Assembly: GCF_016904885.1 (NCBI RefSeq)
Contig: NZ_JADWYI010000001.1
Coordinates: 7,049,224-7,113,223, forward strand
Reading direction: 5' to 3'
DNA from: [Archangium] primigenium
Lineage (GTDB): Bacteria > Myxococcota > Myxococcia > Myxococcales > Myxococcaceae
DNA: 64,000 nt
The translations under genes were made by a program, and so were the position numbers. Of this stretch, positions 6,230 through 64,000 are shown piece by piece. How positions within the stretch are numbered: the stretch's first letter is position 1; each line of letters starts with the position of its first letter. The notes below the pieces were generated by a model. The model made no database searches, was not told the DNA's origin, and worked only from the letters and a program-made list of their open reading frames with translations.

Positions 6230-8755
6230 TCAGGTGCCCGTGCCCACGGGACGCTGCTTGCCGTCTGATTTCGTGTTCGTCGTGCTCGGGGCCGGGGCCG
6301 GCGCCACCATCAACGCGCCCTTGGGCCCCGCCTGCAGCGCCCCCGCCGGGTAGGCGGGGCGCGCATGATAGATGCCCTCGAGCGTGTGCAGGAAGGACTG
6401 CGCGATGAGGTTCAGGTCCCGCAGCGTCAGGTCACACTCGTCCAGCTGGCCCTCGGAGAAGATGAGGTTGATCATCTTCTGCACCTGGGCCTGCAGGCGG
6501 GGCGTGGTGGGCTCGGGCAGCGAGCGCGTGGAGGCCTCGACGGCATCGGCGATCATCACCAGCGCCGCCTCGCGGAACTGCGGCTTGGGGCCCGGGTAGC
6601 GGAAGATGCTCTCGTCGACGGGCGGCGCGCCTTCCTTGCCTTCCTGCTCCTTGACGGCCTTGTGGTAGAAATAGCCCACCAACCGCGTGCCGTGGTGCTG
6701 CGGAATGGCGTCCGCCACCAGCTTGGGCAGGCGGTACTGCCGCGCCATCTCCAGGCCCTCGGTGACATGGCGCTTGATGATGATGGCGCTCATGGCCGGC
6801 ACGAGCGTGTCGTGGCGGTTCTCGCCCTTCTGGTTCTCGCTGAAGTAGAGCGGATTCCGGCCCTTGCCGATGTCGTGGTAGTACGCGCACGAGCGCGCCA
6901 GCAGCGGATTGGCGCCGATGGCCTCGGCCGCGTTCTCCACGAGCGTGCCGATGATGATGGAGTGGTGGTAGGTGCCCGGCGCCTGGACGATGAGTTCCTT
7001 GAGCGCGGGGTGGTTGAGGTTGGCCAGCTCCAGCAGCTTGAGGTCCGAGGCGTAGCCGAACACGGACTCGATGAGCGGCGTGAGGGCCAGCACCAGCACC
7101 GGCACCGCCAGCGTCGTGCCCGCGAAGGCGCAGAACGCCGTGACGAGCGTGTCCACGGTGAGCCCCTTGCCCTCGGCCAGGAAGAGGCAGAGCACGGCCA
7201 CCAGGTTGGCCAGGCCCGTGACGAGCCCCGCCCGGAAGATGCCCACGCGATCCTTGGCGCGGGTGATGCGGTCGGCGGCCACCAGCGCGCCCACCAGCGC
7301 GTAGATGCCGAAGGACAGGGAGTTGCCCAGCATCACGCCGGACAGGCACGCCAGCACGATGGCGAAGAAGAGCGCCAGCGCCTCGGAGAGCACGAAGCGC
7401 ACGAGCATGGCGCCGGCCGCCACCGGGAACGCGTAGTAGAAGGCCTCCAGCGGCAGTGCCGTGTAGCGGTCCTGCACGGCGTCCGCGATGGACACCCACA
7501 CCTGGGCCATGCCGAGCATGCCCACCAGCAGCACCCCCAGCAGCAGCGCGTCCTTGCGCGTGGGGCGGAAGCGCCGGAAGGCCGCCCGGCAGAAGACGTA
7601 GGTGGCGGAGATGAGCAGCGCGACCAGCCCCGTGCCGCCCACCTGCAGCTGCACCAGATCCAGCCGGTCCGTCTGCGCGCGCATGCCCCGCACGGCCACC
7701 AGGTGCGTCTCGTTGACGAGCTCGCCGTCGCCGATGACGCGCTGGCCCTTCTTGATGGAGATGACCGCGTCCTTGACCGCGGCGGCGGCCCGCTCCCGGC
7801 GCGTGTTGGTCTCCGCCTTGTTGATGGTCAGGTTGGGCCGCACCAGCCGCTTGGCCAGCCGGAGCACCGCGCGCCGCTGGACCACGGGGGCGTCCGGCAG
7901 GAGGTTGCCGGGCACCGAGGCGAAGCGCTCGAGCTCGGTGTACGCCTCGCGCATGTCCACCACCGTGGGCGCCGTGCCCGGCAGGGTCTGCTCGCCGTTG
8001 TGCCGCAGGTCGCGCACGGTGATGCCCTGGGCCCCCTCGCGCGCCAGCTCCTCGCGCGAGTTGGCGATGTACACGGGCAGGGGCTCGGAGAAGCCATAGG
8101 CGCGCTCCACCAGCGCGAGCGTGGCCGCCTCCAGGGTCTCGGAGAACCGGCCGTTCTCCAGCGCCTGGAAGTCCTCGAGGTCGATCGGCGCGTCCCGGCG
8201 ACCGAAGAGCAACGCCTGGAAGGCGCCGCGCATGGCCTCGGACTCCTGGCGCTGCCGCTCGCGATCCTCCGGCGTCGGCGTGGGCTTGCGCACCGGCGGG
8301 GCCTTGCGCGACTCGGGGGGCGGCTCGACGGCCGCGGCCTCCTCGGCGCGCGCCTTCTCCTCCAGGCGCAGGCGCATGGCGGAGAAGGCCCCGTTGACCG
8401 CCGTGCGCAGCTCGGCCACCACCCCCGGGCTCAGGTCGAACACCGGGCGGACCGCGGCGCGCGCGTCCAGGCGCCGCTTCTCCGTCATCGCCTCATGGAG
8501 GATGTCGTAGTCGCGCCCGGCCTTGAAGCCCGTGGGGGAGCTGGTGCGAAAGGGCTTGCCGAGGTTCTCCTCGGTGAGCGCGGGGATCTGCTGGCTGTAG
8601 AGCCCCGGGGAGATGACGAAACCGGCCGCCACCGACACGCCCAGCAGCAGCAACACGCCCGCCAGCCGCCGACCCCAGTGGGGGCCGAGCCGGAAGCGCC
8701 GTGACAGCGCGTCCAACGGACTGGGTCCGGGGGGCGACGATTCCGGTTCGGCCAT
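6230..8755 (-). CDS. 7TM-receptor HD-domain phosphohydrolase (PgpH/7TMR-HD family)
   Basis: 841 aa. Long extracytoplasmic N-terminus, 7 TM, HD motif (YHDIGK). Lies between phoH and ybeY as in many bacteria. Confidence 0.8.
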
Positions 8756-10024: not shown

Positions 10025-11218
10025 CTAGCGCAAGGGGGGCAGGAGGATGAACTGCCGGTCCGATGTCCGACGGTAATAATAATCATCCCGCCATGGGTAG
10101 CGCAGGTCCTCGTGGTGCAAGAGACCCACTTCCACCAGGGAATCCAGTCGTTCAGGCAGGTTGCCCTTTTCAAGGCGGAACACCTCGAGCGCGGCCTGGA
10201 TGCGCGCCTGTTGGGCGCGAGACACCAGGCGCTGGGCGGCCGGATCCGCGTACGAGGAGGCCGAGGTGCCCTGGAGGTCCCAGGTGCCCGGGCGCATGCG
10301 CGAGGCGAAGAAGCCCAGGGCCGCGATCACCGCGAAGGTCACGGCGGCCCGCGCCACCATGCCGCCCACCCGCAGGACCAGGCCCGCGCCACCGCCCGAC
10401 GAGGCCGACAGGGACAGGCCCGAGGGAGGGATGGCCCGGATGTATTCCAGGTTGAGCAGGTTCACGAGCGCCTTCCAGGTCTCGAACTCCCCCAGGCAGC
10501 TCAGGTCGACCAGCTTGGTCACGTCCCGCCCCGGCCCGAGCAGGCTGAACACCCGGCGCTCGGAGCTGCCGATGGACTGGAACTCGCCCTTGTTCTCGTC
10601 CTTCTTCTCCTCGGAGAAGGCGTCATCGAAGGCGGCGTCGAAGTCGTCCTCCTTCGGCTGGGCCTTGGGCGGCGGCAGCTCCTTGATCTTCTCGAAGGTG
10701 GTGGCCTCGTTGGTGAGCTTCTTTCGCAGGTGGGGCCACTCGTCCACCATCCGGAAGCCTTCCATGAGGACGCTCTCGGCGCGCAGGGGCGTGAGGTCGT
10801 CCGCGTCCACCTGGACGCTCTCCTCCTGCTTGAACTCGTAGTTGCCCGCCTTCCAGGCGAAGAGCCCATAGAGGCTCTCCGTCACCTGCAGGCGCATCAT
10901 CTGCCGCAGCTTCTCCTGCGTGATGATGTTCATGGAGATGAGCACGTCCCCCAGCCGCTTGAGGGTGCGCTTCTGGATCTCCAGCGCGCTGTCGAGCTGC
11001 TGCTGGGTGATGAGCTCGGCGCTCACCAGCATGTTGCCGAGCAGCTGTTTCTTCTGCCGCGTGATGCTCTCGGCCCGGACGATGTTGCCGTCCCGGATGA
11101 AGACCTGGACGTCGTGGTCCTTGCTCTTGAGGTAGAGCACGCCCGTCTTCTGCTGCTGCCCGATGAGCTGCAGGATGTCCGCGATGCCGAAGTCCTTGAG
11201 GGTTCCCGTCAGGGCCAT
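10025..11218 (-). CDS. DUF4388 domain protein
   Basis: N-terminal GIADILQLI DUF4388 signature. Acidic linker and C-terminal hydrophobic segment. Confidence 0.5.
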   Translation of the reverse strand: MALTGTLKDFGIADILQLIGQQQKTGVLYLKSKDHDVQVFIRDGNIVRAESITRQKKQLLGNMLVSAELITQQQLDSALEIQKRTLKRLGDVLISMNIITQEKLRQMMRLQVTESLYGLFAWKAGNYEFKQEESVQVDADDLTPLRAESVLMEGFRMVDEWPHLRKKLTNEATTFEKIKELPPPKAQPKEDDFDAAFDDAFSEEKKDENKGEFQSIGSSERRVFSLLGPGRDVTKLVDLSCLGEFETWKALVNLLNLEYIRAIPPSGLSLSASSGGGAGLVLRVGGMVARAAVTFAVIAALGFFASRMRPGTWDLQGTSASSYADPAAQRLVSRAQQARIQAALEVFRLEKGNLPERLDSLVEVGLLHHEDLRYPWRDDYYYRRTSDRQFILLPPLR

Positions 11219-52892: not shown

Positions 52893-53726
52893 ATGCACCT
52901 GCGAACCCTGGCGCACCTGTCGGATCTGCACCTGGACCTGTCCCCCAGCAGCGACGCCACCGCCCAGGCGCTGGTGGAGAGCCTGCTCACCGGCCGCGTG
53001 GACCATGTGGTGGTGACGGGAGACCTGACCCACCAGGGCGGCCGACGCGAATACCAGCGCTTCCGCGAGCTCTTCGCGCCCCTGCTCGACGCGGGACGGC
53101 TCACCTTCGTCCCCGGCAACCACGACCGCACGGGCGAGGACGCGGGCCGCGCATGGATGAACGGCCAGAAGGTCCGGGTGGAGGCGCATGAAGGGCTGTA
53201 CCTGGTGTGCGTGGACTCCACGGGACCGCACAACCGCGACTACTTCGCCTGCCATGGGGTGCTGACCCCCGGCGTGCTGGACGCCGTGGACAGCGCCCTG
53301 AGCGCCGCGCCCCTGGGCGCGCTGACGGCCGTGCTGCTGCACCACCACGTCCTGCCCCTGCCCGAGGAGAGCTTCCCGGAGCGTCTGGCGACGCGCCTGG
53401 GCTGGCCCCACGCCGCGGAGCTCGCCCTGGGCGCGGAGCTCGTCCAGCGCATCCAGGGCCGGTGCGATCTCATCCTCCACGGCCACCGGCACGTGCCGCG
53501 CGAGATCGACCTGGGGCGGCCCCGGGGCCGCGCCCTGCGCATCTACAATTCGGGCAGCTCCGTCGAGCTGGGCCGCTTCCGCGTCTTCTCCCATGCCGGG
53601 GGTCGGCTCATGGGCGAGCCCCTCTGGCGCCAGGCCCGCGTGCAGCCCCGGCCCCACAGCGCCGGGGCCAATGTCCTGCCCGCGTTGCAGTACCTCGCCG
53701 CGCAGCTGTCGGGCGCCCTGCTCTAG
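52893..53726 (+). CDS. Metallophosphoesterase (PlcP-like candidate phospholipase C)
   Basis: SDLHLD...GDLTHQG...GNHD...HHH...GHRH motifs. Start MHLRTL. Confidence 0.6.
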   Translation: MHLRTLAHLSDLHLDLSPSSDATAQALVESLLTGRVDHVVVTGDLTHQGGRREYQRFRELFAPLLDAGRLTFVPGNHDRTGEDAGRAWMNGQKVRVEAHEGLYLVCVDSTGPHNRDYFACHGVLTPGVLDAVDSALSAAPLGALTAVLLHHHVLPLPEESFPERLATRLGWPHAAELALGAELVQRIQGRCDLILHGHRHVPREIDLGRPRGRALRIYNSGSSVELGRFRVFSHAGGRLMGEPLWRQARVQPRPHSAGANVLPALQYLAAQLSGALL

Positions 53727-53834
53727 AAGCGACTGCTTGCTCCCCTGCTGTCCGGCCCCACGAGCGGGCACGGGAGAATGCCCCGCGGTGTCCGCGGGGT
53801 TTTCCCACTGGCACTGGGAGGACATTTGGAACCG

Positions 53835-54203
53835 ATGGTTTCCGCCGGGGACGCACGCAAGGTACTGGTCGTCGATGACGACGCGGATTGGCGCGAGTTC
53901 CTCCGGCTGTGCCTGGAGGAGCTGGGCTACGAGGCCATCGAGGCGGCCAATGGCCAGGAGGCCCTCGATTCGCTGGCGCGACAGCGCTACGGCGTGATGC
54001 TCCTGGACCTGAACATGCCGGGAATGAATGGCCTCGAGGTCTTGGAGCGGATGCCGCGCGGGGATCCTCCCCGCGTGGTCCTGCTGACGGGCGCGGCGGT
54101 GCAGGACGTGGGCGGGGCCCTCCGCTCGGGACCGCACTACTACCTGCCCAAGGGCGCGAGCCGGGACCAGTTGTCGCTGCTGCTCCAGTCCCTGGACACC
54201 TGA
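53835..54203 (+). CDS. Single-domain response regulator
   Basis: VLVVDDD...DLNMPGMNG... Confidence 0.7.
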   Translation: MVSAGDARKVLVVDDDADWREFLRLCLEELGYEAIEAANGQEALDSLARQRYGVMLLDLNMPGMNGLEVLERMPRGDPPRVVLLTGAAVQDVGGALRSGPHYYLPKGASRDQLSLLLQSLDT

Positions 54204-54413
54204 GTCGCCCCCGAGCGGGTCGCGAGTCGCCCCCGAGCGGGTCGCATGACCCACGGACCGTTCCGAGGGCCCGAGCCCGGACATGTATCTCCGGGTGGAC
54301 AGTTGGCCCGCCGCGCGCCGAGTCGTCGCCGCTCCGCGCGCCCGTGCCCGAATGCGTGCTTGCGTCGGTCGAGGAAGTCGGCTACTTACCCGCCCACGTC
54401 GGAGGAGTGGTTC

Positions 54414-54487
54414 GCGCGATTAGCTCAGCTGGATAGAGCGTTGGCCTCCGAAGCCAAAGGCCGCTGGTTCGACTCCAGCATCGCGCA
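54414..54487 (+). tRNA. tRNA-Arg (anticodon CCG)
   Basis: Cloverleaf. Acceptor GCGCGAT/ATCGCGC, D-arm GCTC-AGCTGGATA-GAGC, anticodon loop CTCCGAA, T-arm GCTGG-TTCGACT-CCAGC. No encoded CCA. Confidence 0.85.
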
Positions 54488-54539
54488 CACAGTCAACCCG
54501 GCGGAATCTCTCGGGAAATCACGAGGGATTCCGCCGGGG

Positions 54540-55006
54540 ATGACATTCCGGCACTCCCCCATCAGTCAGTTGCAAGTCCGCGTCGTGCGACCGCTCCAGG
54601 CCTGACGAGGGCTGCGGGTTGCTCCACCACCCCGCCTGCGCCCGCCCGGGCGTACTGGTACGGCGGTCCGGCGGGTCTGAACGTCGGCGGTGACGTCCTC
54701 CCGCCGTCTGTCACTGGCGCACCGCCCCTGCTCGACCCCGACTCCGGCCAGGTCGGGCTGCTCCCCGGCGGCCCGCGGCAGGACAGGGTCTACGTCACCG
54801 ACCGGTACGAGATGGCGGAGGTGGTCGCCGCCCTGCACCCGGACAAGGGCTGCGTCTACCGCGTCCTGCCCGAAGCGCCCCTGGAGGACGCCGACAACCC
54901 GGGCGTCTTCTGGCTCTGCACGCGGGCGCGGGTTGTGTCCGTGCACCCGCTCGATGACGCCACCGAACTGCGCATCCTCAAGGGGCTCGCGGGGGAGGCG
55001 TCATGA
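54540..55006 (+). pseudogene. Arr-like (rifampin ADP-ribosyltransferase family) gene, frameshifted
   Basis: Frame from ATG 54540 gives MTFRHSPISQ (compare Arr MVKDWIPISH) and stops at 54605. Homology (YWYGG...LNVGGDVL...VYRVLPEAPLEDADNP...RVVSV) continues in another frame through to 55006. The Arr comparison is from memory. Confidence 0.35.
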
Positions 55007-55713
55007 GCTGCCCCCTGCCGAAGAAGCCGGTGGTGGACGTGCGCACGTACACCGTCTACCCGGACGCGCACCTCCATGGAGCCCACGGGCTGGAGCTCAA
55101 GCAGCTCCGCGCGGACGCCGAGCGCCTGGGGGACCAAGTGGACGCCACGGCCCGCGAGCTCGCGGACGCGCGCGAGGCCCTGCGGGAGGCCGAGCAGAAG
55201 CTGGTGCGGGTGGAGCAGGAGCGGGACACCGCCCGGGCGCAGCTGGACGCCATCCGCAAGGAGTTCCTCCTGCGCGACATGCCCGCGGAGGACGGGCCCG
55301 ACGCCCTGTCCTCCTTGAGGGAGTTGCTCTCGGCGTACCGCCGCCAGTTGCTCAACCTCCAGCAGGTGGGCGTGGAGCGGGACACCGCCCGGGCGGACAG
55401 CGCGCTGCTGCTCGCGCGCGTCCAGCGCGAGCGGGGCATGCTGGAGCTGCTCTTCCACTGCGGCCGCGCGGGCCACTCGGGCACGCGCTTGAAGGACGCC
55501 CTGGAGACGGTGGCGCGCTTCCTGGCCTCGGCGCCGGAGGTGTCCACGTCCAGCGGTGCCGAGCTGCTCGCCGCCGTGCGCCAGGTGATGGAGGTGGTGG
55601 ACCGGCCCACCACGCCCGAGTTGCAGGACGGACAGTTGAGCGAGCTGCACGGCGCCGTCGAGGGCCTTCGTGGCGCGCTGGCTCCGCGCGAGCAGGAGGT
55701 GGCCCGTGGCTAA
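55003..55713 (+). CDS. Hypothetical coiled-coil protein
   Basis: 236 aa, heptad-rich. ATGA overlap with the Arr-like ORF end. Confidence 0.5.
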   Translation: MSCPLPKKPVVDVRTYTVYPDAHLHGAHGLELKQLRADAERLGDQVDATARELADAREALREAEQKLVRVEQERDTARAQLDAIRKEFLLRDMPAEDGPDALSSLRELLSAYRRQLLNLQQVGVERDTARADSALLLARVQRERGMLELLFHCGRAGHSGTRLKDALETVARFLASAPEVSTSSGAELLAAVRQVMEVVDRPTTPELQDGQLSELHGAVEGLRGALAPREQEVARG

Positions 55714-56110
55714 GGCCGCCCCGAAGAAGCAGCCAGGGCCCGAGCGGGTCCCTTCCCTTCATGAATTCCAGCAGGAGGCACGCGCCAACATCGCCGAGCG
55801 CACGCCCAAGGACTTGAGCGTCGAGGAGGTGCAGTCCATTCGCGCCTTCAAGGCATCGGGCTCCACCGCCGTTGGGATTGCCCAGCAATTCCGCATCGAC
55901 CGGCGACAGGTGTCGGCGATCGTCAAGTTCCGCGTCCGCGCGGATGTGCCTCGTCCGTTCGAGACGAGCGAGCAGCGCTCCTGGCGAGAGTCAAAGCACC
56001 GGGAGAACGAGCACGACGCGAAGAAGCGGCTGGAAGCGCTCTCCGCCAAGAAGGCCGGCTCGAAGAGGAAGACGAAGCCCGGGGATGACACGTCGGAAGG
56101 TGCGTCATGA
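55706..56110 (+). CDS. Small basic protein with HTH-like segment
   Basis: GTG start. SVEEVQSIRAFKASGSTAVGIAQQFRIDRRQVSAIVK resembles an HTH. Lys-rich tail. Confidence 0.35.
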   Translation: MAKAAPKKQPGPERVPSLHEFQQEARANIAERTPKDLSVEEVQSIRAFKASGSTAVGIAQQFRIDRRQVSAIVKFRVRADVPRPFETSEQRSWRESKHRENEHDAKKRLEALSAKKAGSKRKTKPGDDTSEGAS

Positions 56111-58125
56111 GCACCCTCCGGCGCATCGCGCTCGTGGGGTGCGGCAAGGCCAAGGCATCCCAGGCCACCAAGGCGCGCCAGCTCTACACGGGCCCGCTCT
56201 TCCGCGCCTCCCTGGCCGCCGCCGAAGCCGAGTTCGGCGGTGACGTCTGGATCCTCAGTGCCAAGCACGGCCTCGTGGACCTGGACGAGGTGCTCGAGCC
56301 CTACGAGGCCACCCTGGACGGTGCCTCGCCGAAGTGCAGCTCCAACTGGGGGCTCGACGTCATCCGCAACCTCCGGGACGACGAGCACAACACCCCGGCC
56401 CACCTCACCGTGTACGCGGGTCAGGCGTACGCGCAGGCGCTCCGGCACCACCTCCCCGAGGGGTGGGTGCTCGACGAGCCCCTGGCGGGCCTCGGCCAGG
56501 GCGAGCGCCTCGGCTGGCTCAAGCAGCGCCTCGCGCGGCTCACCGCCCCCACCACCCACTCCACCTCCTCCTTTCCGGCGGGCCCCCAGGGCGCCGCCAC
56601 CGAGCCCTCCATGTCCACGGCCACCCCGCGTCTCACCGCCGAGCAGCGCCAGCAGCACTTCACGAAGGCCCTGGAGGCCGAGCGCGAGCTCGCGGATGTC
56701 CCTCTGCTGCGCGAGCGCTTCCTCCAGGCCCTCGCGCAGCAGGAAGAGCGCCTGCGCCTGTTGCTCACCCGCTCCATGGCCGCGGCCACCACGGGGGAGA
56801 ATCCCGACGCGCCCCAGCAGCAGAGCCTGGCGCTGGAGGCGAGCGCGCCCAAGAAGCGCGGTCGCCCGCGGAAGGCCCCCGCCGCCCCGGTGGTCCAGGA
56901 GCAGCAGCCGGCCGCCGCGCCGAAGAAGCGGGGCCGCCCGCGCAAGGCGCCCGTCACCCCGGCGGAGACGGGAGAGAAGCGCCTGCCCCCGGCGGAATCC
57001 GCGCGCACGGTGAAGGTGGAGGCGCCTCCCGTGGAGCCCCCGGCGCCCGTGGCTGTCATGGAGGAGGACGCGGTGCCCGCCCCGGCGGTGCCGTGCTGCA
57101 CCTGCGGCGACTCGCTGGCGGACCACCCGAAGAAGCGCTGCACGGCCAGGCGCGAGGGCAAGCCCTGCCGGTGCAAGGCCTTCCAGCTCCACCGCGTGTG
57201 GGACTGGGAATTGTGCTGGGGAGAGCACTGCGGTGTCCGCGTCTTCTGGCTCTTCCACGCAAAGGACCCCTACAACGTTCGCCACGGTCCTCTCCGCGCG
57301 CAGAGCGGCACCCTCCTGCGCCACCACCTGCAGATGGATGTGGTGGTGGAGGCGCGCAAGACGGGTGTCTGGCCCGCGGACGATGAGCACGGCGTGCCGC
57401 AGCGCGTGCTGGAGACGGTGGCGCGCGTGCTCGCCGATCATCCCCATCAGGCGCCGAGCGCGGCGTCCACAGCCACGTCCGCGCCGAGCTCCGGCGCCCC
57501 GTTGCCCGCGCAGGCCGAGGTGGCGACCGCGACTGCCCCCGAGCGCACGGACCTGGGAGCGTGGCGGGTGGAGCTGCCCGAGCGCACTGGGAACGTGCGT
57601 GTCATCCGCCTCTGGCTGGTGAATGACACCACGGGCGAGCGCGTGTCGGCGATGTGGTGGAGCACCACGGGCGACCTCGAGCCCGGACACCGAATCTCCG
57701 GCCGTGCGGAGGGCGCGGAGTTGAGCGAGGAGCTCCGGTTGAGGGCATGGTGGGCAGAGCACCAGCCGTCCGTGGTGGAGCCGCTCGTCCAGTCCTGCCG
57801 GGCCGGCCAGGTCCCCGGGCTGTGCCTGTACCTCTCGGAGTACCCGGAAGAAGGCCCCAGCCGCTACGCCCTGTCCGAGGGATGGCAACTGGAGGCCAAG
57901 GTGGACGACAGCAAGGAGCGGCCGTGGTTCCGCTTCACCCTGCCCACCGAGCGCACGGAGATGCGCGAGACAACGGGCTACTTCCACCTGCAGGACGGGA
58001 AATTCGTGGTGGCAACGCCGGCCAAGGTGGACCCGGACGCCCACCTGTACCCCGAGCTCACGTACCGGATTGCCCAGGCCGAGGCGCTCATCCACTGCGG
58101 CTTCGTCGACGAGGCGAAGCCATGA
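56107..58125 (+). CDS. Large hypothetical protein: conserved N-terminal domain, 2x AT-hook (KKRGRPRKAP), Cys-rich segment
   Basis: 672 aa. ATGA overlaps at both ends. Confidence 0.5.
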   Translation: MSTLRRIALVGCGKAKASQATKARQLYTGPLFRASLAAAEAEFGGDVWILSAKHGLVDLDEVLEPYEATLDGASPKCSSNWGLDVIRNLRDDEHNTPAHLTVYAGQAYAQALRHHLPEGWVLDEPLAGLGQGERLGWLKQRLARLTAPTTHSTSSFPAGPQGAATEPSMSTATPRLTAEQRQQHFTKALEAERELADVPLLRERFLQALAQQEERLRLLLTRSMAAATTGENPDAPQQQSLALEASAPKKRGRPRKAPAAPVVQEQQPAAAPKKRGRPRKAPVTPAETGEKRLPPAESARTVKVEAPPVEPPAPVAVMEEDAVPAPAVPCCTCGDSLADHPKKRCTARREGKPCRCKAFQLHRVWDWELCWGEHCGVRVFWLFHAKDPYNVRHGPLRAQSGTLLRHHLQMDVVVEARKTGVWPADDEHGVPQRVLETVARVLADHPHQAPSAASTATSAPSSGAPLPAQAEVATATAPERTDLGAWRVELPERTGNVRVIRLWLVNDTTGERVSAMWWSTTGDLEPGHRISGRAEGAELSEELRLRAWWAEHQPSVVEPLVQSCRAGQVPGLCLYLSEYPEEGPSRYALSEGWQLEAKVDDSKERPWFRFTLPTERTEMRETTGYFHLQDGKFVVATPAKVDPDAHLYPELTYRIAQAEALIHCGFVDEAKP

Positions 58126-59093
58126 GCTGCGCGCGGCTCCCTCAAGAAGACGGCGCGGTGGCCGTGGTGTGCCAGCGGCCACGCAAGAAGCGCCCGCCGA
58201 AGCCGCTCCGGCCCGCGCCTCCCCGCGTGGACGTGCGCCGGTTGGTGGTGGTGAGTGTCCCCGCCCCCTGGCACGTGCTGCTCGCGCTGGGGCTGTGTCC
58301 GGCGCTCTGCCTGCCCCAGAGCGAGCGCTACCTCTGGGCGGAGTACGTGGCGCTCCACGTCACCGACGCCCCGGAGGACGCCCGGGCCTTCGCGCTCGCG
58401 CGGCAGGCGGGTGTGGATGTGCCCGAGCACCCCCTGCGCGCGGTGCGCCAGGCCGTCGTCTCCGTGGTGCGCGTGGCGCGGCCGTGCTTCCCCTCCGCGG
58501 GACAGGGCGGGGCCATGACGCCGTGGTTCCACGGCGCCGCCCTGCTGCGGGTGGAGGACGCCCTCGTCCTCCACCCCATTCCCTGGGCCCAGGCGAGCGC
58601 CCCCTGCTGGGAGCCCGGAGCGGAGCTGCGCCACGAGGTGGGGCGTGCCTTCAAGGTGGCCCGGACGGCGCGCGCGCACCTCGAGGCCGAAGCCCGGCAA
58701 GAGGCGCTGCACGAGGAGCGCGCGGGGCACATGGCGGCGGAATTGGACGAGCTGCTTGGCGCGCGTCTGGCTGCGGAGGCGCGCGAGCACCCTCCAGCCC
58801 CTCGAAAGGTGCTGGGCCCTGTCGTGGTGACGCGCGTCGAGCCCGCCTCCGGGACATTCTGGGTGGCACCCGCTCCGCCGACCGAGCCCGATCCGCTGGC
58901 CGAGCTGCAGCGCCGCTACCAGGAGAGCCAGCAGCGTCTCTTCAAGCTCGCGGAGAAGTACAAGCGCTACCCGCGCAGCCCCGAGGCCATGTGCCCGGTG
59001 ACGGGCCTCAAGGGCTACCTCTGCCCGGACTGCCAGGACTACTTCACCTGGTGCCCGGGCGTCGTCCCTCACGAATGCGCGAGGCCCACATGA
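58122..59093 (+). CDS. Hypothetical protein, possible ASCH-like domain
   Basis: SVPAPWHVLLALG...RYLWAEYVALHV resembles the ASCH N-terminal pattern. C-terminal CxxC. Confidence 0.35.
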   Translation: MSCARLPQEDGAVAVVCQRPRKKRPPKPLRPAPPRVDVRRLVVVSVPAPWHVLLALGLCPALCLPQSERYLWAEYVALHVTDAPEDARAFALARQAGVDVPEHPLRAVRQAVVSVVRVARPCFPSAGQGGAMTPWFHGAALLRVEDALVLHPIPWAQASAPCWEPGAELRHEVGRAFKVARTARAHLEAEARQEALHEERAGHMAAELDELLGARLAAEAREHPPAPRKVLGPVVVTRVEPASGTFWVAPAPPTEPDPLAELQRRYQESQQRLFKLAEKYKRYPRSPEAMCPVTGLKGYLCPDCQDYFTWCPGVVPHECARPT

Positions 59094-60331
59094 GCTGCGT
59101 CGCCGACTCCACCATGGGCGACGCCCTCTCCCGGCTCCGCGCGAGCCTGGAGGCCGAGCGCCTGCGCGCGGAGCGGGCCGAGGGGAAGGTGGAGGGCTTC
59201 CGGGAGGCCTTCGCCCTGCTGGCGGGCCGCTTCGCCGCGCCCGCCGCCGAGCCCCTCCCGGAGACTGCACCTAGTCCGGCGCCCACCTCCGCCCCCGTGC
59301 TGCGCCTCGCCCAGGCCCCGAGCGAGCGTGACGGGGCGCGTGACGCCCAGCGTGACGGCGTCACGCTGGGCGTGACGGGCAGCGTGACGGGCCCCACCCC
59401 GGAGCAGCGCCGGAAGGCACAAAACCGAGAGAGAGCAAGGGCTTACCGGCTTCGCCAGGCCAGCGTGACGGCCAGCGTGACGGGCCCCACCCCGGAGCAA
59501 CACCGGAAGGCACAAAACCGAGAGAGAGCAAGGGCTTACCGGCTTCGCCAGGCCAGCGTGACGGCCAGCGTGACGCAGGAGGAGGAGGAAGAAGTAATAA
59601 CTACTCCTCCTCCTTCCTCGTCACGCGTGACGGCGAGCGTGACGGACGAGAAGCCCGTCCGGGGCACGCTCGCGCTCGTCGCCACCGCGGCGCGCGAGTC
59701 CCGCGAGGCGAAGCCACCCCCCAAGCTGCCGCCCGAGGTGCAGGCCCTGCGCGAGGCCTGGGACAGCCTGTGCGGCACGAAGAGCTTCATCCCCTGGCCC
59801 GCGCGCACCTCGGCGCGCCTGCTGGAGGACGCCCAGGCCGCCCTGGCGCGGCGGCCGCTCGAGGAGTGGCGCCGCGTCTTCGCCCTCGTGCCCCGCTCGC
59901 CGGTGTGCCGCGGAGAGCTGTCCAGCGGCCGCCGCGCGAGCCTGCTGTGGCTGCTCGCTGGCAAGACGCGGGACAACTACGAGCCCGCCGAGAAGCTCCT
60001 CGCGGGGGACTGGTCGGTGGACCCCGAGGACGCGGGAGCACCACCCGCCGTCGAGGCGCCCCCACCGGCCGCGGGCTCCGACACCCCGGCGGGCCAGGCC
60101 TGGAGCGAGGTGCTCGCCGCCCTACGTGCGGAGGGGAAGCACTACGCGCTGCAGTGGCTGGAGCAGCTGCGCGCCCGGAGCGTGGACGAGGGCCACCTGG
60201 TGCTGGAGGCCCGGGACAGCTTCGCGCGTGGGTGGATGGCCGAGCACTACGGCGAGCTGCTCGCTCGCTGCGTGGGGGTGCTGGGCCTCGCGGGCGTGCG
60301 GTACGTGCTGCCGGGGGAGGTGGGGCCATGA
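59090..60331 (+). CDS. Hypothetical protein with 2x 31-aa tandem basic repeat and DnaA-N-terminal-like C-terminal domain
   Basis: Repeat SVTGPTPEQ(R/H)RKAQNRERARAYRLRQASVTA. C-terminus W..VL..L......Y..WL..L.....D..LVLEA...F...W....Y..LL. Confidence 0.45.
   Translation: MSCVADSTMGDALSRLRASLEAERLRAERAEGKVEGFREAFALLAGRFAAPAAEPLPETAPSPAPTSAPVLRLAQAPSERDGARDAQRDGVTLGVTGSVTGPTPEQRRKAQNRERARAYRLRQASVTASVTGPTPEQHRKAQNRERARAYRLRQASVTASVTQEEEEEVITTPPPSSSRVTASVTDEKPVRGTLALVATAARESREAKPPPKLPPEVQALREAWDSLCGTKSFIPWPARTSARLLEDAQAALARRPLEEWRRVFALVPRSPVCRGELSSGRRASLLWLLAGKTRDNYEPAEKLLAGDWSVDPEDAGAPPAVEAPPPAAGSDTPAGQAWSEVLAALRAEGKHYALQWLEQLRARSVDEGHLVLEARDSFARGWMAEHYGELLARCVGVLGLAGVRYVLPGEVGP
59381..59566 (+). 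repeat. 93-bp tandem direct repeat x2 inside a CDS
   Basis: Units 59381-59473 and 59474-59566 differ at about 3 positions. Locally lower GC. Multiple AGCGTGACGG decamers. Confidence 0.8.
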
Positions 60332-60495
60332 CGCCGGGCCAGCAGTGCCTCTTTCTCCTCGCCCACGTGCTCTTCGGCTTCGCCACGCTCGGCGCGCCGC
60401 GGAAGCTGGGTGCCACGGCCGCTGCCGGGGGCGTGCTCGCCAGCCTCGTGGGCCTCGCGCGGGCCGTGGGTACTGCCCGCCGGAGGGCGCCATGA
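60328..60495 (+). CDS. Small hydrophobic peptide (55 aa)
   Basis: ATGA-coupled on both sides. Two predicted TM helices. Confidence 0.3.
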   Translation: MTPGQQCLFLLAHVLFGFATLGAPRKLGATAAAGGVLASLVGLARAVGTARRRAP

Positions 60496-60869
60496 GGTGG
60501 GCCGCCCAACGCGACAAGGCCGAGCCCGCCGTGGTGCAGGCCCTGCAACTCGCCGGGTGGACGGTGGAGAAGGTGTCCGCCCCGGGCTTCCCCGACTTGC
60601 TGTGCGTGCGCCGCGGGCAAGTGGTGCTGCTCGAGGTGAAGTCCGAGCGCGGCCGCATGCAGCGCGCCCAGGTGGAGTTGCACGCCCGCGTGCGCGCGGC
60701 CGGCCTCGTCGTGGCGGTGGTGACGACGCCCGAGGAGGCCCTCGCTGCGGTGCGCGGGGAAGTCCGCCGCTCCGCCCTCACCGAGCGCGCCGAGAAGCCC
60801 CGCGGCGCGGCTCGCTCGCTGTTGTCCCGTGCCGTCCCCAACACCTACCCGAAGGGAGAGAAGCCATGA
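60492..60869 (+). CDS. VRR-NUC domain nuclease
   Basis: GFPDLLCVRRGQVVLLEVKSERGRMQRAQ (PD-(D/E)xK core). Confidence 0.6.
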   Translation: MRWAAQRDKAEPAVVQALQLAGWTVEKVSAPGFPDLLCVRRGQVVLLEVKSERGRMQRAQVELHARVRAAGLVVAVVTTPEEALAAVRGEVRRSALTERAEKPRGAARSLLSRAVPNTYPKGEKP

Positions 60870-61309
60870 GCTGCAACAGGCCCCCACGTCCTACGCAGGC
60901 GAAGTGCGCCGACTGTCCCACCCTGGTGTCGGTGAAGAAGGTCGGCAAGGTGCCCAAGCGCTGCCCCAAGTGCGAGAGGACGTACTGGAAGGCCTACCGG
61001 CGCGAGGCCAACAAGCAGAAGCGCGAATGGAAGAAGCAGCACGGAGACGTGCCCATGCGACAAAAGCACACGGGCCCCTTCGCCCTGGGCCCGGAGCGGC
61101 CGGAGCTTGGGATGACGTCGAAAGAGTTCTCCGCATGGAAGGCGCGACGCGCGGTGGAGTTGTACGTGCGCGAGCCTGACCTGAACATGGAGTTGATTGC
61201 CGAGCGAGTGGGTCTCAGTGACAGCGAGGTGCAGCGTCTCGTGACGGAGGCCGATATTGAGCGGCACTCCCGAGTGCAGCAGTTCCTCCCGTTTGGGTTG
61301 CCGGCCTGA
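60866..61309 (+). CDS. Zinc-ribbon (CxxC...CxxC) protein with C-terminal HTH-like region
   Basis: CADCPTLVSVKKVGKVPKRCPKCE. C-terminus LIAERVGLSDSEVQRLV. Confidence 0.4.
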   Translation: MSCNRPPRPTQAKCADCPTLVSVKKVGKVPKRCPKCERTYWKAYRREANKQKREWKKQHGDVPMRQKHTGPFALGPERPELGMTSKEFSAWKARRAVELYVREPDLNMELIAERVGLSDSEVQRLVTEADIERHSRVQQFLPFGLPA

Positions 61310-62300
61310 TCAACGCGCCGCGCCACCGACATCGTGGCGCGGCTGTTCCATCAGGGGAACGGCACGCAGCAGTGTGCCGTTCCTCGTTAAATCAGGCCGC
61401 TCGAGGTAGATGCAGCAGAGCAGGCGGCGGCGTGCCATAGGTCAGTCGCCAAGTGATTTCTGCTTGGAGAATGAGTGGCATCTTCCGAAAATTGGGATTC
61501 CGCCGGTATTGAGCGAGAGCATTTTCGAACGACCCAGCGACCCAGTTTCCCGTTCGGTCAGCAGAGATAGGGCCGTGGATCAAGGGAATGCCTAGCTTTA
61601 CGTAGCACTGCTTCCAGGGTCGTTCGACTCGGACGAATCCGTCGCGTTCCATGGACGCGACAAACACTAGGGCATCGCACCGACGACCACTAAGGTGTGA
61701 GGGTGTAGTCGTGCAGAATCCGCAGCGAACGCAGAGAGTAAACGGGCGGCTCATTCGTTCGCCCCCCTTCGCTTCTCGTACCGTACACGGTACAGATCAG
61801 TCTCCCTTGCGCAGCACAAGAAACTGGTGCACCATGCGCGGTACAGATTCGTGATGTCGACCCTTCCTGGTCGCATCTTGGATGTGGCAGTCATGTGCAG
61901 TCCTTTCGTCGATTCGAGCGACGGAACCAGGAGACTTCGGCGCGCTAACGCCGAAGTCTCCGTGTTTGCGCGTGGCACCATTCACGCGAACTCACAACCT
62001 CGCCTGAGAACCAGAATTCGTCAACGTGCTCCGCCAATATTACGCGTGTGGGCGGATGTGGCTCGCTGTGTTTCATGGGTAACCGAGGTTTGATCGCCTT
62101 GCGTTCCGCCCTGGCGTGCGCGACCTGAACGACAAATTAGCGCAATCTCGCTGTTCTGTCTGAGTACCCCCGCAGAATTGCTTAGGGCACTTGCGCCGCC
62201 AGCGTCTGCTTGCCTCAGTCCATAGGTAGACAACCCTCCTGAGTCGCGACGGCACTCCTCTCGGAGACACCCGCGTCTGAGGAGACAAGAGCACGTTCCA
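61310..62300. other. Low-GC (about 55%) non-coding tract with inverted and direct repeats
   Basis: No credible ORF. GTTCGACTC (61622-30) is identical to the tRNA-Arg T-arm. 21-bp near-palindrome at 61641-61. GTACCGT-AC-ACGGTAC. CGGTACAGAT x2. 13-bp hairpin at 61930-61. Confidence 0.6.
61317..61389 (+). terminator. Two tandem perfect 10-bp hairpins ending the island operon
   Basis: GCCGCGCCAC-7-GTGGCGCGGC and GGAACGGCAC-8-GTGCCGTTCC followed by TCGTTAAAT. Confidence 0.5.
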
Positions 62301-62544
62301 GGCCACGAGCGCCCGCGCCGCTTCTCCCTGGGCATGACCACCTTCTTCACGAAGCGCCAGCGCGCGCTCGCGGGACTGCCGGCCGAGGACGAGCCCTCCA
62401 CCTCCGTGCCCAGCCTGCCCCCGCGGTGCTGTGACCAGGCCACGTCCGATCGCTGCGGCTGCGAAGTCGTCCGGTGGAAGTGCCCCGCCCACGGGGCCAC
62501 CGGCCCGGACTGCAACCCGCGCTTCACCCACGACTAGCGCGCCC

Positions 62545-63006
62545 ATGCCCTGCCCATGCCCACCTCCCCTGCCCCCGCTGCGCGAGCTGCTACAGGCTCT
62601 CGGCCACCTCGCCCCGCCCGAGGCCGAGCACCACATGGAGACGCTCGAATCCCTGGAGGAGCGCCAGGCCAATACCCGGGCCCGCCTCGCCCACGAGGAG
62701 GCCAGCCTCGCCCGCGTGGTGCCGGACGGGACGCGCTCCGCCAGCGAGGCGTGGTGCCTGTACGCCTCCGCCGTCTCCGCCGCGCGCCGCGCCTCACGCC
62801 AGCTCGCCGTGGACGAGGCGGTGCTGCGCGAGAGCCTGGAGGACGCGCTCTTCTGGGCCCGCCAGCGCCAGGCCCAGGGTGTCGTCCACTGCGCGGCCTG
62901 CCGGGGCACGGGGGAAGACTCCCGCCCCGCGCCGGGCAGCGCCCTGGAGGGAGCCGCCTGCCCCGCGTGCGAGGGCCGGGGCCGCGTGCGCCTGCACGGC
63001 CGGTGA
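62545..63006 (+). CDS. Hypothetical protein with C-terminal CxxC-x-CxxC
   Basis: 153 aa. Weak call in a GC-rich region. Confidence 0.3.
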   Translation: MPCPCPPPLPPLRELLQALGHLAPPEAEHHMETLESLEERQANTRARLAHEEASLARVVPDGTRSASEAWCLYASAVSAARRASRQLAVDEAVLRESLEDALFWARQRQAQGVVHCAACRGTGEDSRPAPGSALEGAACPACEGRGRVRLHGR

Positions 63007-63072
63007 GGGGCACCCCTTCTGCCTCCTGGGCCCGGCAAGCACTCCCGCGAGCCGCCGCCCAGGAGCCTCACC

Positions 63073-64000
63073 ATGACGAAGCGCTTCGCCTTCTCCGCCG
63101 TCCTGCCCTTCCTCCTGCTGTCCCAGGCCTGCACCCCCGAGCCCCAGCCCCCGGCGCCCGCGGTGGCGCCCAAGCTCATCCTCCACCACGCCCGGGTGTT
63201 CACCGCCACGGGCGGCGCGGACGCCGAGGCGGTGGCCGTGGGCGCGGACGGGAAGTACGCGGCCGTTGGCACCAACGCCGAGGTGCTGGCGCTCGCGGGC
63301 CCGGACACCCAGGTGGTGGACATGAGCGCCACCTGCCCCACCCCGGGCGTGGCCTGCAAGGTGCTGCTCCCCACCTGGGACGACGCGCACACGCACATGG
63401 TGGGCTTCAACCCCAGCGACGGCATCCTCAACGATCCCGCCGCCTTCCTCCCGGGTGACGGGCCCACGCTGGAGCAGGTGCAGGCCCTCTTCCGCCAGGC
63501 GCTCGCCGCCCAGAAGCCGGACGGCTCCGGCCCGCTCCTCCCGAAGGGCAGTCGCCTCGTGGCCTACGTGGGCACCTCCTTCCTCACGGACGCGGCGGCC
63601 ACCCGGGACGCGCTCGACTCCGTGTGCGGCGAGGACTACCTGTGCCTCGCCCGCGGCTGGTCCGGCCATGGCACCGTGGCGGCCAGCCCGACGCTCACGC
63701 ACTGCGGCCTCTCCGACACCCAGCCGGACATCCCCGGCGGCTACTACGAGCGGGACGCCTCGGGCCGCATCACCGGCAAGCTGCATGAGGCGGCCGAAAT
63801 CCGCTTCCTGCGCTGCTGGATTGGCGAGGCCTCGGACGAGCAACTCGCGGGCCTCATGAAGGCCTACGCCACCACGGCGGTGAAGTACGGCGTGGGCCGG
63901 GTGCAGGACATGAGCCTGGGCATGGAGCACGCCCGGGCCGTGCGCGTCACCCAGCTGGCGCAGCTGCCGCTCCGCGCGCGTGTCATGTGCCTGCCGGGCA
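63073..64000 (+). CDS. Amidohydrolase-family lipoprotein (partial, continues beyond the window)
   Basis: Signal/lipobox LLLSQAC, metal-binding DAHTH. No stop before the window end. Confidence 0.6.
   Translation, partial: MTKRFAFSAVLPFLLLSQACTPEPQPPAPAVAPKLILHHARVFTATGGADAEAVAVGADGKYAAVGTNAEVLALAGPDTQVVDMSATCPTPGVACKVLLPTWDDAHTHMVGFNPSDGILNDPAAFLPGDGPTLEQVQALFRQALAAQKPDGSGPLLPKGSRLVAYVGTSFLTDAAATRDALDSVCGEDYLCLARGWSGHGTVAASPTLTHCGLSDTQPDIPGGYYERDASGRITGKLHEAAEIRFLRCWIGEASDEQLAGLMKAYATTAVKYGVGRVQDMSLGMEHARAVRVTQLAQLPLRARVMCLPG

Follow-up and report, generated by a model that had tools for sequence, protein, structure and literature searches.

A low-GC tract beside a phage-like replication module of Archangium primigenium encodes a member of a rare, unnamed family of small proteins

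An unannotated small gene was located on the minus strand of a tract of approximately 1 kb (61310-62300) within 64 kb of Archangium primigenium DNA (the window); its product belongs to a rare protein family that has no name, and the cis elements around it follow a partly conserved layout. This tract had been described in the initial annotation as the non-coding tail of an island. The likely explanation, in our assessment, is a compositionally foreign small-gene cassette (61356-61961) joined to the broken right end of a phage-like replication module, rather than a non-coding att/ori tail.

GC content was 0.53-0.60 over approximately 61380-62280 and 0.70-0.79 on either side, which bears out the drop from about 70% to about 55% that was first described. 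The tract was the lowest-GC 900 nt in the 64-kb window (0.574; the runner-up had 0.629 and the window mean was 0.707). Given that the other intergenic gaps in the window had GC contents of 0.67-0.73, this drop is more than an intergenic effect. No similarity was detected when the DNA of the tract was compared to phages and plasmids.

The longest ORF of the tract, a 120-aa frame at 61392-61754 on the minus strand (ATG 61752-61754, TGA 61392-61394), was assessed by homology, HMM, and predicted fold. A phmmer search against 1.84e9 representative proteins gave 12 matches at E ≤ 1e-3, the best of them at E = 1.3e-17 and 1.8e-16 over residues 6-112; the homologs were 99-117 aa long and aligned nearly end to end. 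An HMM built from ten homologs without the window copy scored the protein at 89.7 bits (E = 5e-27, profile positions 4-104 of 115), and this ORF was the sole match when the six-frame translation of the window was searched. The view that no plausible ORF exists here was therefore wrong, and the non-coding premise fails for 363 of the roughly 1000 bp. As estimated from base composition, an intact 120-codon ORF arises by chance in 57% GC sequence at approximately 1% per frame. A Shine-Dalgarno-like AAGGGGGG was read from the sequence at 61762-61769 on the minus strand, 7 nt upstream of the ATG. Judged by these sequence comparisons, 61392-61754 is a real, full-length, and unannotated gene. The proteins encoded at 60492-60869, 62334-62537, and 62545-63006 matched A. 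primigenium entries at 100% identity. The flanking A. primigenium proteins bear consecutive GenBank accessions (MBM7117614, 615, 616, 617), so the tract holds no annotated protein; the gene was missed because of its atypical composition. An annotation gap is thus corrected, in that a real and conserved small gene had been overlooked in the A. primigenium genome. Seven further short ORFs that lie within the tract or overlap it had no Pfam match.

The family is approximately 115 aa long, unnamed (P0124/P0125-like), and rare, with 12 representative clusters in 1.84 billion; the 120-aa protein belongs to it by full-length similarity. In the family alignment, a conserved N-terminus (MSxxxC-x2-CG) and a C-x2-C-x8-H-x5-C motif were found together with the core ME.xGY..IP.RRWTRAFRK.G.PV.HGP.S..RTGNW.PK. 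Ligands C8, C11, H20, and C26 are all present in the window protein, as are H60, G61, G69, N70, and W71, and all four invariant family residues are retained; two nearly invariant prolines (P44, P73) are replaced. The product is predicted to be a small zinc-knuckle protein, and its AF2 model was confident (pLDDT 86). No match was found for it in Pfam, NCBIfam, PHROG, or PADLOC or among phage proteins, nor was a fold relative, and the exact sequence was missing from a collection of 15 billion proteins. Searches of metagenomes using the family alignment and the hairpin pattern, and of viruses using the family and the 147-aa protein encoded next to it, were all empty. Retron, CRISPR, or defence-system readings found no support.

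Stem lengths were evaluated against dinucleotide shuffles of the region. Stems of 7 bp occurred in 58% of the shuffles, and therefore the two 7-bp palindromes of the tract are not significant alone; stems of at least 10 bp and at least 13 bp occurred in 1% and 0.1%, respectively, and three hairpins are significant by this measure. All of the motifs first listed for the tract were recovered at the same positions or within a few bases of them. Among these is the first of the three hairpins, a perfect 13-bp stem with a 6-nt loop (GGAGACTTCGGCG-CGCTAA-CGCCGAAGTCTCC, 61930-61961, P = 0.001), which the hairpin scan placed 176-207 nt ahead of the small gene's ATG. The other two had been overlooked in the initial annotation. 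One is a GC-rich hairpin with a 10-bp stem and a 7-nt loop (GCCGCGCCAC-CGACATC-GTGGCGCGGC, 61317-61343), located 8 nt past the stop (61307-61309) of the last plus-strand gene of the island. The second, also GC-rich, has a 10-bp stem and an 8-nt loop (GGAACGGCAC-GCAGCAGT-GTGCCGTTCC, 61356-61383) and follows the stop of the small gene at a distance of 9 nt. Together they occupy the 82-bp gap separating the convergent stops at 61309 and 61392, and the fold of 61305-61395 reached -55.4 kcal/mol (z = -9.0 on the plus strand and -6.4 on the minus strand). The hairpin at 61317-61343 is likely the terminator of the last plus-strand gene and that at 61356-61383 likely the terminator of the small gene, the two forming a convergent terminator pair. 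Two stable GC-rich hairpins between convergent stops resemble the bidirectional intrinsic terminators of high-GC bacteria; unlike these, neither strand carries a clear U-tract here, so we infer termination from position only. None of the three hairpins is accompanied by a clear U-tract, and a consensus terminator scan did not call them because they lack a T-run.

Between the 13-bp hairpin and the gene lies the perfect 7+7 palindrome GTACCGT-AC-ACGGTAC (GTACCGTACACGGTAC, 61778-61793), 24-39 nt upstream of the ATG and a candidate operator. It is unique in the window, where 0.06 matches were expected at ≤ 2 mismatches. The direct repeat CGGTACAGAT was found at 61788 and 61839, a spacing of 51 bp (about 50 had been given). 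An 18-nt unit ACCGTACACGGTACAGAT (61780-61797) has a degenerate second copy ACCATGCGCGGTACAGAT at 61831-61848 (15/18 identical, 51 bp apart); a 15/18 direct repeat within 100 nt had a P of approximately 0.02. Counted from the ATG, palindrome and half-degenerate repeat lie 24-94 nt upstream. In RNA from the minus strand, pairing of the two copies would yield a single long imperfect stem-loop (approximately 61772-61851), and the minus-strand fold of 61770-61860 had -42.2 kcal/mol (z = -5.1). Autoregulated small regulators (Cro/CI-like, Xis-like, and partners of HTH_36/DnaD_N Rep-like genes) have palindromic operators over their own promoters. The arrangement here is similar in that a gene of approximately 120 aa is preceded by a perfect palindrome and a degenerate copy about five helical turns apart, sits amid mobile-element remnants, and has family members that adjoin HTH_36/DnaD_N genes. 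A search for sigma-70-like promoters found none in the tract. A sigma-54 promoter-like word at 61973 was discarded, as such words were not enriched (46 matches vs 71 expected).

Parts of this layout recur at locus L017, in a different genome, where the homolog has 32% identity. A perfect hairpin with a 13-bp stem and a 6-nt loop is present 147-178 nt upstream of that homolog (176-207 nt in the window); its stem is identical to that of the window at 8 of 13 positions, and the five differences are all compensated. A GTACCGT..ACGGTA inverted repeat, with the half-sites of the window, lies 45-68 nt upstream (24-39 nt in the window). The chance of a TACCGT/ACGGTA inverted repeat in one of four 300-nt upstream regions was roughly estimated at 1e-3. 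A GC-rich hairpin (11-bp or 14-bp stem) follows the stop at 7 nt, compared to 9 nt in the window, and at locus L016 a hairpin with an 11-bp or 14-bp stem likewise stands 5 nt past the stop of the homolog. Of five independent homolog contexts, L017 alone shares palindrome and hairpin with the window, and the other three of the four upstream regions lack these elements; the hairpin/palindrome/gene/hairpin layout is thus shared but not universal. No credible match emerged when 61755-62400 was compared by tblastx to the regions upstream in L016 and L017. Of the functions first proposed for the tract (att, origin, or packaging site, or a regulatory region or sRNA locus), a regulatory one is plausible, since 61755-61961 lies upstream of a real gene and its hairpin and palindrome are shared with L017, while the att, origin, and packaging functions were not supported.

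These same folds raise the alternative that 61770-61961 encodes a regulatory RNA of small size, or else a structured leader/attenuator, with the 13-bp hairpin as its 3' end or a regulatory stem. We regard this as quite unlikely, even though the folds are strong and non-random (z = -4.4 and -5.4 for 61920-61975, which contains the 13-bp hairpin, besides the value for 61770-61860 given above, and -4.3/-3.3 for the whole region 61755-62333). A GUGUUUG follows the 13-bp hairpin on the plus strand, there is no upstream gene on either strand that would need a terminator at this position, and the L017 hairpin has the same size with compensated stem differences. However, the compensated changes come from two sequences only (the window and L017), no promoter was predicted, and the orientation of the better U-tract differs, being away from the gene in the window but towards it in L017. 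No RNA family was found in the tract either: a cmscan search (Rfam 15) of 53000-64000 at E ≤ 1 returned the tRNA and two chance miRNA matches elsewhere.

Family members were found beside replication-type genes in variable, mobile-element-rich regions of myxobacterial genomes. At L016 the family gene begins 4 nt after a DnaD_N/HTH_36 gene, and at L017 an HTH_36 gene homologous to it lies 1.7 kb upstream of the family gene. The two Rep-like genes (L016 380-829 and L017 5654-6283) share 25% identity (E ~1e-6). This hints that the family gene and a DnaD_N/HTH_36 gene form a two-gene module, of which the window holds the small gene alone. At L009-L011 the family member lies 4.2 kb from a tRNA-Arg(CCG) and a tRNA-Leu, beside IS transposases, in a neighbourhood with the same PhoU/GT21/metallophosphoesterase/response-regulator set as the window.

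In the window, the gene adjoins a phage-like replication module located to the right of a tRNA-Arg(CCG) gene (54414-54488, plus strand). Core chromosome lies left of the tRNA (two-component systems, pst/phoU, a GT21 glycosyltransferase, a metallophosphoesterase, and a response regulator). The module (55003-61309) is entirely on the plus strand and comprises ORFs at 55003-55713, 55670-56110 (146 aa, weak HNH-endonuclease PHROG matches), 56107-58125 (DUF6884), approximately 58260-59090, 59090-60331 (DnaA_N), 60328-60470 (small), 60492-60869 (VRR-NUC), and 60866-61309 (the last ORF, 147 aa with a Cys-rich N-terminus). Two module proteins had distant matches in Myxococcus phage Mx4. Structural genes and a detectable integrase are lacking from 54489-61309, which looks like a prophage or integrative-element remnant. 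The 146-aa ORF replaces a 229-aa gene present in the metagenomic element L002.

Four metagenomic elements (L002-L005) were collinear with the window gene by gene, over 55102-61306 only. In these elements, further genes (330 aa, 95 aa, and large minus-strand genes) begin 30 nt after the 145-aa gene. As collinearity stops at 61306 and synteny ends with the stop codon at 61309, the tract starts exactly at a synteny break. No trace of the genes that follow in L002 was found in the tract using tblastn and tblastx, and Pfam searches of the L002 genes past the module and of the L009 neighbours were uninformative.

On the right, a spacer of 372 bp (61962-62333, GC 0.605) ends at the ATG of a 67-aa plus-strand gene (62334-62537). 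No ORF with a family match, no repeat, and no RNA family was found in this spacer, which presumably holds the promoter of the 67-aa gene and/or decayed DNA; the extended upstream frame of that gene (62226-62534) had no Pfam match. The 67-aa protein is Cys-rich and is followed by a 153-aa protein (62545-63006) ending in two CxxCxG(x)G motifs like those of the DnaJ zinc finger, both genes being on the plus strand in high-GC DNA. Both proteins are singletons known only in A. primigenium, and the island may therefore run past the tract; in that case the tract would be a junction within it rather than its tail. A contig search with the amidohydrolase returned one unrelated Pseudomonas locus only.

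The synteny break could also mark decay. Under this alternative, the right arm of a former prophage was deleted or degraded, AT-biased mutation lowered the GC content, and the 120-aa ORF is an undisrupted pseudogene without function. GC3 periodicity was absent throughout 61380-62280; GC1/2/3 of the CDS was 0.60/0.54/0.58, compared to a GC3 of 0.76-0.90 in the homologs; and two nearly invariant family positions are substituted. From the missing GC3 bias and the P44/P73 departures it follows that the gene could be a recently inactivated relic. The element genes found 30 nt after the 145-aa gene of the relatives are missing here, and no integrase was found among the ORFs scanned. On the other hand, the ORF is intact, running without frameshift or premature stop from a conserved N-terminus through to where the family profile ends; the Shine-Dalgarno sequence, upstream palindrome, and downstream hairpin are kept and have parallels in L017; and no remnant of the following L002 genes persists in the tract. 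The absence of GC3 bias is compatible both with a gene gained recently from a donor of lower GC and with a pseudogene of very recent origin, and the intact frame and kept signals favour the donor. We consider a relic unlikely.

The foreign cassette preferred here would be read on the minus strand, with the 13-bp hairpin (61961-61930) as the upstream boundary of the conserved layout. This would be followed by approximately 130 nt of promoter/leader and the two 18-nt units, the proximal one forming the perfect palindrome GTACCGTGTACGGTAC, and then by the Shine-Dalgarno sequence, the 120-codon gene (61754-61392), and a GC-rich hairpin; a second GC-rich hairpin would terminate the convergent island gene. 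From their positions, the flanking hairpins may terminate or insulate transcription. The GTACCGT palindromes may be operator sites of a dimeric regulator, possibly the small protein itself. Because the gene adjoins the replication module here and DnaD_N/HTH_36 genes in two other loci, the protein may act in the control or replication of integrative elements. The block would have come from a lower-GC source. A broader reading is that hairpin, GTACCGT palindrome, gene, and hairpin form a discrete, horizontally moving myxobacterial cassette for a new zinc-knuckle DNA-binding protein that binds its own operators and controls, or helps replicate, HTH_36/DnaD_N or phage-type elements; this is speculative and rather unlikely. 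Should the conserved upstream palindrome turn out to be its own operator, the family would represent a new small regulator for the integrative elements of myxobacteria; failing that, the site is an ordinary junction in a prophage remnant.

A different role had been proposed for the tract, namely that of a non-coding island end with a degenerate tRNA-Arg-derived attR and/or an iteron-type origin or packaging site, which we regard as very improbable. Its position is suggestive, 6.8 kb downstream of the tRNA-Arg gene and ending a module of replication genes, as are its low GC content, two direct repeats, several palindromes, and a 9-mer identical to the tRNA T-arm. This 9-mer (GTTCGACTC, 61622-61630) does match tRNA-Arg 54467-54475, as first noted. 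When the tRNA and its flanks were compared to the whole window, it was the longest downstream match to the tRNA, and the 3' end of the tRNA was not repeated. However, a shared 9-mer arose in shuffles with P = 0.42 on both strands, 0.25 on the plus strand, and 0.15 for the 3' half of the tRNA, and the 180-nt tRNA region has more than 100 9-mers in common with the window. The match is at chance level and inside a conserved CDS, where it encodes R-V-E-R (aa 42-45), so it does not stand as a degenerate attR. The 21-bp near-palindrome GTCGCGTTCCATGGACGCGAC, located at 61641-61661, similarly forms the codons V-A-S-M-E-R-D (aa 32-38) and covers the conserved SMER/MER motif. Thus, where a tract is low in GC, its palindromes and words resembling a tRNA can be coding sequence rather than att or ori signals.

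As criteria, attR was defined as a direct repeat of the 3' part of the tRNA, typically at least 15 nt, at the distal end, and an integrative element by an integrase inside it, usually next to the tRNA. No such repeat was found, and no integrase was detected in Pfam and PHROG scans of the ORFs in 55003-63006; a tblastx search of the GC-rich gap 54489-55100 returned compositional noise only. Prophages and islands integrated at tRNA genes with attL and attR include P4-type islands and Mx8-type integration in Myxococcus. The window is like these in having a phage-like gene block directly 3' of a tRNA gene, but here the 3' end of the tRNA is not repeated directly, the scans detected no integrase, and the relatives are rearranged at this locus. 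The island end may in any case lie elsewhere, given the species-specific singletons right of the tract.

In M. boletus, C. fuscus, and the metagenomic L007, the left flank is kept, no tRNA is present at this site, and unrelated genes follow the response regulator. At L009-L011 the tRNA-Arg is inverted, with a tRNA-Leu alongside. Judged from these arrangements, the response regulator is followed on its right by a hypervariable hot-spot of rearrangement and insertion, and none of these relatives offers an empty site. At L009 the tRNA-Arg is inverted relative to the response-regulator gene and paired with tRNA-Leu(TAA), with a CNNM gene between tRNA and regulator; the tRNA-Arg(CCG) of the window (54414-54488) plus 65 nt upstream is 86% identical to L009 5506-5641. 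Directly 3' of the window tRNA, a long GC-rich inverted repeat (CCCGGCGGAATC ... GATTCCGCCGGGG, 54496-54541) probably serves as terminator of the tRNA. Further copies of its 12-14-nt arms occur in the DUF6884 gene (56987-57000) and of a 13-mer at 61494, with E-values at chance level throughout. This 13-mer (GGGATTCCGCCGG, 54525 and 61494) was rejected as an att repeat (BLAST E ~1, chance level).

The origin part of the same alternative was evaluated against iterons, defined as at least three direct repeats of approximately 17-22 bp. Tandem Repeats Finder gave no relevant tandem repeats or iterons in the tract, and a repeat search returned a single two-copy 18-nt family (83% identity). The DnaA box TTATCCACA was absent from the tract at ≤ 1 mismatch. 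No AT-rich unwinding element is present, as GC does not fall below 0.53 in any 120 nt. The tract resembles iteron-type plasmid and phage origins in adjoining replication genes and in having two direct repeats and palindromes; it differs in that the two copies (15/18) are not tandem, unwinding element and DnaA boxes are lacking, and much of it is CDS. A point in favour of an origin is that real tandem repeats stand upstream of the family gene at locus L014. There, a 1.1-kb low-GC gap (0.54) upstream of the family member holds approximately 27 tandem copies of a 12-nt CTCCTCTCCCTA-like unit and two 46-nt direct repeats (7549-7886 and 7452-7543); this array is truly iteron-like, and nothing comparable was seen in the window. 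Downstream of the L009 homolog (10480-10720), two copies of a unit of approximately 125 nt (each with ...GCGGCGTCTTCGGAAGCC...GCTGGACAG...) appear by eye to be present; they would lie in 1 kb of gene-free DNA, after which come IS (DDE) transposase genes.
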